From Elainellaceae cyanobacterium (GTDB lineage: Bacteria; Cyanobacteriota; Cyanobacteriia; CAZCXK01), in NCBI GenBank assembly GCA_051117555.1, contig JBNPEG010000013.1, positions 51,267-115,266 of the forward strand: 64,000 nucleotides of DNA. The letters are read 5' to 3'. Shown piece after piece: positions 33,772 to 38,165 of the stretch. Below the pieces are notes generated by a model. That model saw only the letters and a list, made by a program, of their open reading frames with translations, did no database searches and was not told the origin of the DNA. Position numbers and translations under genes: made by a program. Positions within the stretch are counted from its first letter, which is position 1. Each line of letters opens with the position of its first letter.

Positions 33772-34968
33772 CTATTTGCGAATGGGGGTTCCACATGGAT
33801 AGGTCGCCACAGGCTCTCTCCCGGCGGTAGGTTTTCTCTGAGTCGGTTGAATAAAAGACCGTTCAGATTGCTGCGCCTGCGCGGTTAAGTAATCACGTCG
33901 CAGCGTTTCGAGCCATTCTTCACGACGGTCATACAAGCGCTTTAAGGGTCTGGGCGGGCATTGGTTGATGACATATGCCGTCAAGATAGGCAATGCAATG
34001 GTGTTATCGGTGTAACACACAATCGTGCTGGGAAGTTCATCTGGGTCAACTTTTCCCCAGCTTACGGCTTCGCTCGGAGTAGCCCCCGATAAACCGCCCG
34101 TGTCAGGGCGAGCATCCGTAATTTGAATAAAGTAGTCATGCCCGCGTTCTTCTAGCCCCAGCACCTCATGGATTTGAGGCTGAGTTTGTAAGAGAAAGTT
34201 TTTAGGACTCCCACCGCCGATGATAATAGCAGCACTCTTTCCTTCTCCGTCTGGCGAATCAGTCTGGCGCGCACTGTAGGCGATCGCCGCCGTCTCATTA
34301 ACATCGATGGATGGATCGATAACCAACTCGGAGCCTTCTAGCGCCAACGCTGCAACATTCATCCCAATCGAACTATCGCCAGGTGATGACGTATAAATCG
34401 GGACGCCACACTCATAAGCCGTTGCCAGCAAACTAGAGTTTTTTACCCCAATCTGCTGTTCAACGTGATGCACGGCCTGCCCTAACAGATAGTGGAACTC
34501 TGCCGTTCCCATACGCTTTTGGAATGGCTCAGCCTTGATCACGTTGCGAATAAACGCATCAGTTTCTAATAAAACATCGTAGCCAAATACAATATCGTAG
34601 ATGCGAATACGGCCTTCTTGCCGAAGTTTGACATCATCTACAAACGGATGGCTAGAGTATAAATCGAGCCCCAGTCCGTAGTGGATATCGTGATAAAGAT
34701 TAGCTCCAGTGCTGATGATCCAATCAATCATGCCACTCCGAATTAGAGGCGCAAGAACAGAAATTCCATATCCTGCAGGCGTCATCGCGCCAGACAAGCT
34801 TAGCCCTACGGTGACTCCCTCTCTCATCACGTTTCGGCTCAGCAAATGACAGATTTCCCGTAGGCGAGCCGAGTTATAGGCTGTGAAATAGTGATCAATC
34901 AAATCAACTACGCTGACATTCGCGGAAATTGGATCGGGCGCGATTTTGCGGCTAGGCACTTTAGACAT
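33772..34968 (-). CDS. Deoxyhypusine-synthase-like protein (cyanobacterial homospermidine synthase type)
   Basis: [52 protein letters not shown] 34968 follows AGGAG (track start 35049 runs through a tandem repeat). Confidence 0.88.
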
Positions 34969-34991
34969 GGAAAGACTCCTATCGTAAATAT

Positions 34992-35019
34992 TGAGTATCA
35001 AGATGAGTATCAAGATGAG
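34992..35019. repeat. 12-bp tandem duplication TGAGTATCAAGA x2.3
   Basis: Read directly. Confidence 0.85.
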
Positions 35020-35106
35020 CGTTAGAAGATTGGGGTTGATGGAAGACAAGAGCCGTCATCCAAAATTCAAACGCGCATGCTTGAGAACCTGAAAAATTAG
35101 GCAGTC

Positions 35107-35198
35107 TACAGCAATCCCAAATGGGTTGTGAGTGGTGGGGCAGGCGCCACCCGCCCCACCACTCACACACAATTCACAAGCGATTTAGGGTCGCTATA
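35107..35198. mobile_element. MITE-like element with imperfect terminal inverted repeats and internal 15-bp hairpin
   Basis: TACAGCAATCCCAAATGGGTTGTGA ... TCACAAGCGATTTAGGGTCGCTATA; internal TGTGAGTGGTGGGGC/GCCCCACCACTCACA. Confidence 0.65.
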
Positions 35199-35221
35199 TG
35201 ACGTTGCTAATAGAAATCAAC

Positions 35222-35450
35222 TCTGCCGATAGAGGAATTTTCATTAAGTAACCTCTATTCACTTGGAACCGAGGGCTAGGCAATGCTCAAATCGAAGCCC
35301 CTTGTATAGGTACGACATTACAGGCATGACACTCCACATGACCCTGTCAGGCTCAAAGCCAGGGGCTTTTTATCGGCAAAACGACCGTCTTAGACCTGGG
35401 CAATATTGAGCTAACCCACACCATCGGCCTGTCATACGCCATATGACAGC
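35222..35450 (-). promoter_or_regulatory. Candidate structured cis-regulatory RNA upstream of the homospermidine-synthase-like gene
   Basis: Nested complementary segments (35411-17/35273-79, 35406-11/35285-90, 35361-68/35295-302, 35429-36/35442-49) and competing pairings (35371-78/35224-31 vs 35229-35/35252-58). Confidence 0.5.
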
Positions 35451-35979
35451 GCAACCAGGAACATCTAATTTCGGCTAAATTCTTCAAACTCTGATCGATC
35501 CAGTTTGCGAGGGACAGAGTGATGCATATCGGGATAGAACGTCAACATCATGCACCAACCCCTGCAAACCCAGACTTGCAGATCGATCAGCCTATACTGG
35601 GCGCCTCGCACCGGTCTACCCAAGATAGAGCAGGGTCGCACAGGCGTCTTCGCTTTAAATTCATCTCCAGAAACCAAAGCGGTTTCCAGGGATACTCAAC
35701 ATGGGGATAGCGATTCAACGGTCTACGCAACCTTATAAATACAACTTTTTCAATCTAGCATTTCTCGCTCACATCGGCTCGGTGAGATTACTCAAAGTTT
35801 TTACGCGTCCCAATCAATCTAAAGCTATAGCCTTACGCTCTCGCGTTAGGACGCCGAACGTGTAAAACCCGTGCGGCAGGCGGGTCCTTTACACAAATCT
35901 GAGCCCATAGGGCTATGGCAATTTGCAATTGCCAGGAATATCTCTAGCCCTAATGTTATAGAAGTTAATTTAGGACACC

Positions 35980-36015
35980 TTGACAATTCACCCTAATTTC
36001 CGTAACAATAGATAC
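35980..36015 (+). promoter_or_regulatory. Sigma70-type promoter with overlapping NtcA box
   Basis: TTGACA 35980-85, -10-like TAACAAT 36003-09, GTA-ACAATAGA-TAC (GTA-N8-TAC) 36002-15. Confidence 0.6.
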
Positions 36016-36956: not shown

Positions 36957-38165
36957 ATGCCCATCCGTACGATTGCAGACATTAATGAGAAAATTGAGCA
37001 TCAAAAAGCCACGGTCTTGACGGTGGAGGAACTAAAGGCGCGAGTGGCAGAGGTAGGTGTGGCTCAAACGGCTCGCGAGGTGGATGTCATTACGACAGGG
37101 ACGTTTGAGCCCATGGAGTCATCGGGGGCCATTTTGAATTTAGGACATACCGATCCTCCTATCAAAATTCGACGGTGCTGGATGGATGGCATCTTGGCAT
37201 ACTCTGGCTTTGGAGCCGTTGATTTGTATATTGGAGCGACTCAGTCCGCTGAATATTCTGGCATTGCGGATGTCCCGGATTTGTCCGATGAATCACGGGA
37301 ACGGGGGGGAGGACACGTGATTGCAGACCTGATTGCTGGGAAGCAGGTGCGCCTACGAGCCATTGGTCAGGTTACAGACTGCTATGCTCGAGCATCCTTT
37401 GAAACAACGATTACTCGAGACACTATTAATCAGTTTTATTTATTTAATCCCCGAAATTTATATCAAAACTTTATAGTTGGTGTGAATGGGGGCGATCGCC
37501 CCCTATGTACTTATTTGGGGCCTTTGCAACCGCGTTTAGGGAATGCCGTCTATGCTAATTCAGGGGCAATCTCGCCCCTGCTTAACGACCCTGAGCTCAA
37601 TCTAGTCGGCATTGGAACGCGAATCTTTATGGGCGGAGGCATTGGATATGTTGCTTGGGAAGGGACTCAGCACTTTCCGCTCCAAAAGCGGCTTCCCAAT
37701 CAAACCCCCATTGGACCCGCTGCAACCTTAGCGCTTATCGGCGATGCTAAGCAAATGAGGACCAAATGGGTTCGGGGGTGTTATTTCAAAGGGTATGGTC
37801 CATCGCTGATGATAGGAATCGGGGTGCCTCTCCCCATTCTCGAAGAGGACGTTGTCCGTCATTGTTCTGTCCATGATCGAGATTTGGTTGCCCCAGTCGT
37901 TGATTTTTCGATTCCTCGACGAGTGCGTCCTACGTTTGGACTGGTCAGTTACGCACAGCTCAAGTCAGGACGGATCACCATTGATGGCAGAGCCGTTCGC
38001 ACAGCTCCCCTAACTAGCATTTATCTGTCTCGGCAGATTGCCGTCGAGCTAAAGCAGTGGATTGAAGCAGGCTCTTTCCTGCTCACGCAACCGATCGCCC
38101 CCATCCCGATGGATCGAACGTTTGTTGCCCAAGATCAATGGAGCACTCAAATTACTCTGGAGTAG
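36957..38165 (+). CDS. DUF39 homocysteine-biosynthesis family protein (no CBS domains)
   Basis: RTI.DINEKI, VDVITTGTF.PM.SSG, GGGHVI.DL..GK, DCY, NPRN.YQN, GTRIF.GG..GYV...GTQH. Confidence 0.85.
   Translation: MPIRTIADINEKIEHQKATVLTVEELKARVAEVGVAQTAREVDVITTGTFEPMESSGAILNLGHTDPPIKIRRCWMDGILAYSGFGAVDLYIGATQSAEYSGIADVPDLSDESRERGGGHVIADLIAGKQVRLRAIGQVTDCYARASFETTITRDTINQFYLFNPRNLYQNFIVGVNGGDRPLCTYLGPLQPRLGNAVYANSGAISPLLNDPELNLVGIGTRIFMGGGIGYVAWEGTQHFPLQKRLPNQTPIGPAATLALIGDAKQMRTKWVRGCYFKGYGPSLMIGIGVPLPILEEDVVRHCSVHDRDLVAPVVDFSIPRRVRPTFGLVSYAQLKSGRITIDGRAVRTAPLTSIYLSRQIAVELKQWIEAGSFLLTQPIAPIPMDRTFVAQDQWSTQITLE

Follow-up and report, generated by a model that had tools for sequence, protein, structure and literature searches.

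The question raised by this locus is whether the gene for a deoxyhypusine-synthase-like (DHS-like) enzyme in an Elainellaceae cyanobacterium is preceded by a regulatory RNA and, if so, which nucleotides constitute it. An earlier note on the window (the whole stretch of 64,000 nt that was analysed) had placed a switch-like leader with ykkC-like words at 35222-35450 on the minus strand. We report that a large structured RNA, conserved among cyanobacteria, is present at approximately 35746-35492, 42 nt upstream of that stretch, such that the general idea of a structured leader in front of the DHS-like gene stands while its coordinates do not. With a probability that we put at roughly 0.6, the RNA at ~35746-35492 represents a new riboswitch-like cis-regulator of homospermidine synthesis, and 35222-35450 is spacer.

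The DHS-like gene (start codon ATG at 34968-34966) encodes a protein that matches the Pfam DS family (PF01916; E 4.3e-69) and the NCBIfam family NF001980 'homospermidine biosynthesis protein' (576.7 bits, cut-off 450), and it is referred to as speY-like below. In nitrogen-fixing cyanobacteria the major polyamine is reported to be homospermidine, for whose synthesis SpeY is reported to be essential in Anabaena (background and cited references in the available sections of PMC13625781). The flagged stretch, 35222-35450, is situated between the DHS-like gene and an intergenic region that is shared with a glutamine riboswitch on the plus strand.

For the ykkC question, the region 34800-35900 was scanned against Rfam at E ≤ 10, which gave eight weak matches with no riboswitch among them and none inside 35222-35450. 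A search of the whole genome with the covariance model for guanidine-I/ykkC (RF00442) gave nothing at E ≤ 1; in a control search the model matched in 4 of 14 control genomes, in one of these above the cut-off. The Infernal/Rfam check for ykkC-yxkD that had been suggested thus gave no family for the stretch and, since the scan returned no riboswitch and the genome no RF00442, the ykkC-like words, permuted or not, are accounted for as a chance resemblance. Guanidine-I riboswitches are likewise cis-regulatory leaders, tied to the metabolism of guanidino compounds, and cyanobacteria use them upstream of genes for sll1077-type guanidinases (PMC8390497, in the parts available). At the present locus no association with a guanidine carboxylase, guanidinase or exporter was found, and the gene downstream is the DHS homologue of family NF001980. 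Neither the flagged stretch nor the conserved RNA matches guanidine-I in sequence or structure; the latter also differs by its length of ~255 nt, its GNRA hairpin, its 17-bp interrupted closing helix and the gene family with which it is associated.

All helices that the earlier note had named in 35222-35450 could be read in the minus strand at their given positions. GGGUUAG (35417-35411) faces CUAGCCC (35279-35273), AAGCCCCU (35368-35361) faces AGGGGCUU (35302-35295), and the GCUCAA/UUGAGC helix, the AUAGAGG/CCUCUAU hairpin, the inner ACAGG..CAUG stem and the 8-bp hairpin at 35449-35429 are present, as are the complementary letters of the proposed alternative pairing, UGCCGAUA (35378-35371) and UAUCGGCA (35231-35224). 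Most of these helices are contained in the minimum-energy fold. The fold energy is -75.4 kcal/mol vs -70.1 ± 4.3 kcal/mol for dinucleotide shuffles (z -1.23), and 23 of the 200 shuffles folded as well or better.

Conservation was studied with a query of 711 nt (35760-35050) against 41 related genomes. Among the 38 genomes from other genera no match covered 35222-35450, which aligned only with two genomes of the same genus and which in the three-genome alignment is visibly more variable than the 300 nt upstream. Superimposing the proposed structure on the three sequences gave 95.0% of 120 cells paired and two double changes, counts that were equalled by 207 of 500 shuffles; because one of the three aligned rows had served to derive the structure, the slid control is biased. 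In the congeners the changes within the 5' hairpin and the inner stem preserve pairing by G-U. Both congeners have lost the greater part of the 3' arm of the AAGCCCCU/AGGGGCUU helix, G002 more than the other; the missing cells were counted as gaps. As for two conformations, the words of the alternative pairing exist as claimed, but only 83.3% of 24 cells were paired and 322 of 500 shuffles did equally well. The expectation of conservation and covariation in the leaders of relatives was thus not borne out for this stretch, with no match beyond the genus and pair counts within the range of the shuffles. That 35222-35450 is itself a circularly permuted ykkC-like element, or a new two-conformation riboswitch, draws on the existing helices, on their pairing in the three genomes and on the G-U-preserving changes; with the modest fold score, the missing family match, the restriction to one genus, the lost helix arm, the shuffle counts and the lack of a second genomic copy of the upstream RNA model described below, we consider it largely refuted and very improbable. 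Our reading of the stretch is that of a fast-evolving, variable spacer and not a regulatory element, in which the local hairpins may or may not matter.

In other genera the matches to the 711-nt query were confined to its positions 27-201 (~35734-35560) and to a dispersed repeat at 35202-35105. Of 401 genomes of the class, 55 have a blastn match to the conserved core, usually a single one, and a 27-nt IUPAC pattern derived from it was present in at least 119 stretches among 185,579 species genomes. Eighty pattern loci were fetched: 75 belong to cyanobacterial records or MAGs, all with the whole element, and the other five are non-cyanobacterial chance matches without it. Carriers include Leptolyngbyaceae, Oculatellaceae, Elainellaceae, Thermosynechococcaceae, Pseudanabaenales, Chroococcidiopsis and others. 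Among the records with a pattern match are ones from Thermosynechococcus and Leptolyngbya, a few of these being isolates. A speY orthologue follows downstream on the same strand in 104 of the 109 loci that are distinct after removal of duplicates; four of the other five lie at contig ends. The fifth (L050, contig C75 of genome G390) has a full-length RNA with a U-rich terminator-like tail and no speY within 1588 nt downstream, and its genome (380 contigs, 95% complete, 5% contamination) has no speY among the matches listed; the copy may be a true orphan, or speY may be missing through a gap in the assembly.

A covariance model of the 3' half of the RNA, R1, has one match only in the present genome (35490-35643, 108.2 bits), and it has matches in 71 of 151 sampled cyanobacterial genomes. 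In 20 R1-positive genomes that were compared by eye the match is on the same strand as speY and roughly 70-600 nt upstream of it. Conversely, 20 of 75 speY-positive genomes lack an R1 match (counted by eye in G000-G149, taken as the 151-genome sample), and the element is therefore common and not universal.

An NF001980-type speY (E ≤ 1e-60) is absent from sixteen of the R1-positive genomes, which comprise 8 of the 9 in family f5 and all 8 in family f20. Behind the RNA we find here a second DHS paralogue, NF002699 '1,9-bis(guanidino)-5-aza-nonane synthase' (583-600 bits, cut-off 500), which is ~30% identical to speY (one locus). Going by the NCBIfam names, both families serve homospermidine synthesis. 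The long form of the RNA precedes the NF002699 gene by 226 and 280 nt in the two f5 genomes checked. A short form 36-90 nt before the NF002699 gene is present in all eight f20 genomes and, as a second copy of the RNA, in G064; here the R1 matches span 57-84 nt only and the domain is closed by a simple hairpin. In the two short forms compared, homology can still be recognised in the 5' half. Inspection of one short form (L188) by eye revealed a CUUCCU/AGGAGG hairpin that might cover the ribosome-binding site. Rfam at E ≤ 0.1 returned nothing over the NF002699-linked loci except a spurious miRNA match. The small genome G064 has both forms (L193 and L184/L194), the longer before its NF001980-type speY and the short one (78 nt) 64 nt before the NF002699-type paralogue, behind which a SufE gene is located.

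The architecture of the RNA in this genome is given in Table 1. In 99 of 105 loci, vs 10 of 310 control windows, an extended -10 box precedes the UGAYCG motif by a distance that hardly varies (mostly 150-172 nt), and from its position here, 35760-35752, the 5' end of the transcript is predicted to be near 35746. In the 101 loci that have a good match, a non-conserved sequence of 25-144 nt (median 75) separates the 10-nt strands of the closing helix. For this reason the helix was missed at first: RNAalifold on the MAFFT-aligned core returned small hairpins only, and the helix was seen once ~110 nt from the UGAYCG motif onward were folded. In the present genome UGAUCGAUCU pairs with GGAUCGAUCA, and GGUUUGC with GCAAACU; a complement to UGAYCGRYCU that scores at least 8 of 10 is present 25-144 nt downstream in 105 of 105 loci.

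Table 1. Positions of the conserved RNA, its parts and the neighbouring features in the window
Feature	Position	Strand	Evidence or remark
Extended -10 promoter TGCTAGATT (consensus TGNTANNNT)	35752-35760	-	99/105 loci
Conserved structured leader RNA, long form, upstream of speY-like gene	35492-35746	-	blastn, R1, structure counts
5' motif GGUUGC	35732-35727	-	
5' motif UUGAA, after GGUUGC	35718-35714	-	
Short long-range helix GUUG/CGAC	35719-35716 with 35638-35635	-	
P1 hairpin CUGGAAACC/GGUUUCUGG (this genome)	35667-35689; 35689-35681 with 35675-35667	-	covariation
Mini-hairpin, 2-bp stem and tetraloop	35652-35645	-	
P4 helix UUGGG/CCCAG, around GNRA hairpin	35597-35623; 35623-35619 with 35601-35597	-	
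GNRA hairpin U[GCGA]G	35610-35605	-	invariant in aligned loci
Closing helix, 5' strands UGAUCGAUCU and GGUUUGC	35589-35580 and 35570-35564	-	
Conserved 9-nt bulge GCAAGUCUG, 5' side of closing helix	35579-35571	-	
Variable insert hairpin within closing helix	35509-35563	-	
Closing helix, 3' strands GCAAACU and GGAUCGAUCA	35508-35502 and 35501-35492	-	
GAGUUUGAAGAAUUUAG, site of terminator-like hairpin elsewhere	35475-35491	-	stem absent in this genus
Genus-specific spacer with local helices (flagged stretch)	35222-35450	-	fold, alignment, shuffle tests
Palindromic dispersed repeat, MITE-like, in spacer	35105-35202	-	absent at site in both congeners
speY-like DHS homologue, 398 aa	33772-34968	-	Pfam and NCBIfam
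Glutamine riboswitch RF01739	36024-36142	+	52.2 bits
DUF4278 protein, 58 aa	36178-36354	+	PF14105, E 3.8e-19

Over 58 non-redundant sequences 90.7% of the 2650 cells of the whole model are paired, and moving the partners by 1-3 columns (slid controls) lowers the paired fraction to 26-43%. There are 131 double-change cells vs 48.6 ± 8.6 in shuffles (0 of 500 equal, a statistic that is inflated by kinship), and 16 of the 46 model pairs have double changes (6 of 500 shuffles equal). The closing helix contributes 17 pairs with 96-97% of the cells paired and compensatory changes in 10 pairs; its columns 188-290, e.g., hold CG in 32, UA in 22 and UG in 4 sequences, with none unpaired. In window numbering, 35586/35495 and 35582/35499 are among the covarying pairs of this helix. 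P1 (9 pairs) is paired in 89.1% of the cells with three pairs changed on both sides, and P4 in 89.3% of the cells. The GNRA tetraloop was counted in the 101 aligned sequences that were left after removal of eight divergent rows: 72 have GUGA and 29 have GCGA, and every one of the 101 closes the loop with U-A or U-G. The G-U pairs are consistent with the minus strand only. For the RNA of the present genome the fold has a z of -2.23, which 2 of 200 shuffles matched. A conserved aptamer-like structure with covariation is thus found in the upstream RNA and not in 35222-35450.

The helix P3 (CNGC/GNNG) and a pseudoknot between the 5' end and the bulge (~81% of the cells paired, no compensatory changes) are weakly indicated by the alignment and we claim neither. 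A local hairpin, GAYCU/AGGUU, rivals the closing helix and is 94.5% compatible, the changes being almost all one-sided; it could represent an alternative conformer.

A protein-coding origin of the conserved block was also considered. The three overlapping ORFs (62-70 aa) are non-protein-like and the one scanned had no Pfam match; this reading was rejected because the variation fits base pairing and there is no visible three-base periodicity. The block was likewise rejected as a 6S RNA gene, the real one being located on contig C120 (94.7 bits).

Downstream of the closing helix, a perfect short hairpin followed by a U tract within 48 nt is present in 49 of 105 loci, compared with 31 of 209 control windows (15%) and 11 of 105 shuffled tails; this stricter test was used instead of a loose terminator scan, which gave scattered positions and was uninformative. 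In the present genus the terminator stem is missing (35491-35475), and the U-tract/AAU..UAG motif is kept. After the U tract many loci of different families have a common motif such as UUUGAACUAAAUAG or UUUUAAUUGAAUAG (identified by eye); this AAU..AAUAG-like motif is often present within the first 40 nt after the hairpin (loci L022-L143), and the present genome retains UUUGAAGAAUUUAG despite the loss of the stem. We detected no consistent anti-terminator partner, the duplex energies being -4.44 kcal/mol for the true arm and -4.25 kcal/mol for the shuffled arm with scattered targets.

For the long form the distance from the closing helix to the gene start varies between 153 and 1000 nt (median 344, n = 100), which is long for a riboswitch; in the present genome it is 523 nt, including an inserted repeat. 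No conserved small ORF or leader peptide was found in the spacers, the largest cluster (9 of 104 loci) reflecting close kinship. The inserted repeat is ~95 nt long with a strong GC hairpin at its centre, and at least 12 other copies with 90-96% identity are present in this genome (13 of 211 first-look candidates were scored). Many copies are also listed for the two congeners, and the insertion in the spacer is seen only in this genome. The weak miRNA-like Rfam matches near speY are explained by this repeat.

On the other side of the shared intergenic region, the glutamine riboswitch is preceded by a sigma-70-like promoter (35980-36009) and is located upstream of the DUF4278 gene, an arrangement that we take to resemble one known from cyanobacteria. 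The DUF4278 gene is adjoined by a plus-strand gene for a homocysteine-biosynthesis sulfur-incorporation enzyme (36957-38165; PF01837, E 1.6e-147). The glutamine riboswitch resembles the conserved RNA in being cyanobacterial and nitrogen-related. It is 280 nt away on the other strand and differs in being a known family with a much smaller and unrelated fold.

Taken together, the conserved promoter, the large covarying fold in which many unpaired bases are invariant, the occurrence as one copy per genome, the strict linkage to two enzyme families and the short forms abutting the ribosome-binding site are best read as a cis-acting leader, most likely a metabolite riboswitch. The chief competing explanation is a terminated small RNA, i.e., an independent gene with its own promoter and terminator that simply stays beside speY and whose product acts in trans or by binding a protein. 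The extended -10 promoter in 99 of 105 loci, the terminator-like hairpin and U tract right after the domain in 49 of 105 (the stem being absent here), the long and variable distance to speY and the failure to find an anti-terminator would all suit such a gene. However, the short forms start 36-90 nt before the NF002699 genes and leave little space for a separate promoter, the L188 hairpin covers the ribosome-binding site (one sequence, by eye), and the motif that is kept after the terminator suggests that read-through matters. Moreover, linkage to two paralogous families across many cyanobacterial families is hard to explain without a function in cis, and we therefore regard a separate small RNA gene as unlikely. 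Somewhat less likely still is a cis leader that is read by a protein, e.g. SpeY or an RNA-binding regulator, or that responds to general cation/polyamine levels. The size of the RNA (~190-255 nt), its many invariant unpaired nucleotides, its GNRA loop and the failure to find a clear expression platform logic agree with this, but the association with one enzyme family and the single copy fit metabolite feedback equally well.

For the riboswitch-like leader the following mechanism can be proposed, in which transcription start, action in cis, ligand binding and the direction of the switch are what we infer. Transcription would start at the extended -10 promoter at ~35746, placing the ~255-nt structured RNA, down to 35492, at the 5' end of the transcript, where it would act in cis on the downstream DHS-like homospermidine-biosynthesis gene. 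Binding of a ligand of the pathway, be it homospermidine, agmatine or bis-guanidino-homospermidine, to the conserved multi-helix core would make the 17-bp closing helix more stable, and this in turn would decide whether the hairpin just downstream forms. In the long forms this hairpin would be the terminator-like one and in the short forms one that possibly masks the Shine-Dalgarno sequence. SpeY enzymes join two agmatine molecules into bis-guanidino-homospermidine, from which a ureohydrolase then makes homospermidine (PMC13625781, available sections), and homospermidine or its guanidino intermediates are for that reason obvious candidate ligands. The suggestion of the earlier note that a guanidino compound or a polyamine is sensed is thus plausible. 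The more specific proposal, in which homospermidine or its guanidino precursors would be the ligands of a new riboswitch class that feeds back on both SpeY-type families across cyanobacteria, is tentative, and we consider it somewhat less probable than not.

With respect to known systems, Rfam 15 has no match for the conserved RNA. The spermidine riboswitch is a comparable polyamine-sensing class that controls polyamine-related genes (Salvail et al. 2023, PMC10853860, in the parts available); it differs in being a variant of the SAM-I fold, and the region of the conserved RNA has no match to the Rfam SAM clan at E ≤ 10. The terms cyanobacteria, homospermidine and deoxyhypusine synthase do not occur in the available text of that paper. 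The potE and odc1 motifs are, in the sections of PMC8632094 available, orphan structured leaders upstream of polyamine genes, and potE is also similar in its location ~200 nt from the gene with no obvious expression platform. These motifs differ from the present RNA in bacteria, genes and structures, and odc1 is there a uORF motif, whereas the spacers following the conserved RNA have no conserved ORF. A full-text search of literature drawn largely from non-subscription journals gave no RNA element before bacterial DHS/SpeY genes, and the conserved leader looks like an undescribed orphan riboswitch candidate.

In the parts of the literature covered we found no description of how homospermidine synthesis is regulated. 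The leader RNA provides a concrete and testable candidate for this control, and it is also a candidate for a new ligand class among riboswitches. If true, it would be, as far as the literature searched goes, the first dedicated sensor of the homospermidine pathway.
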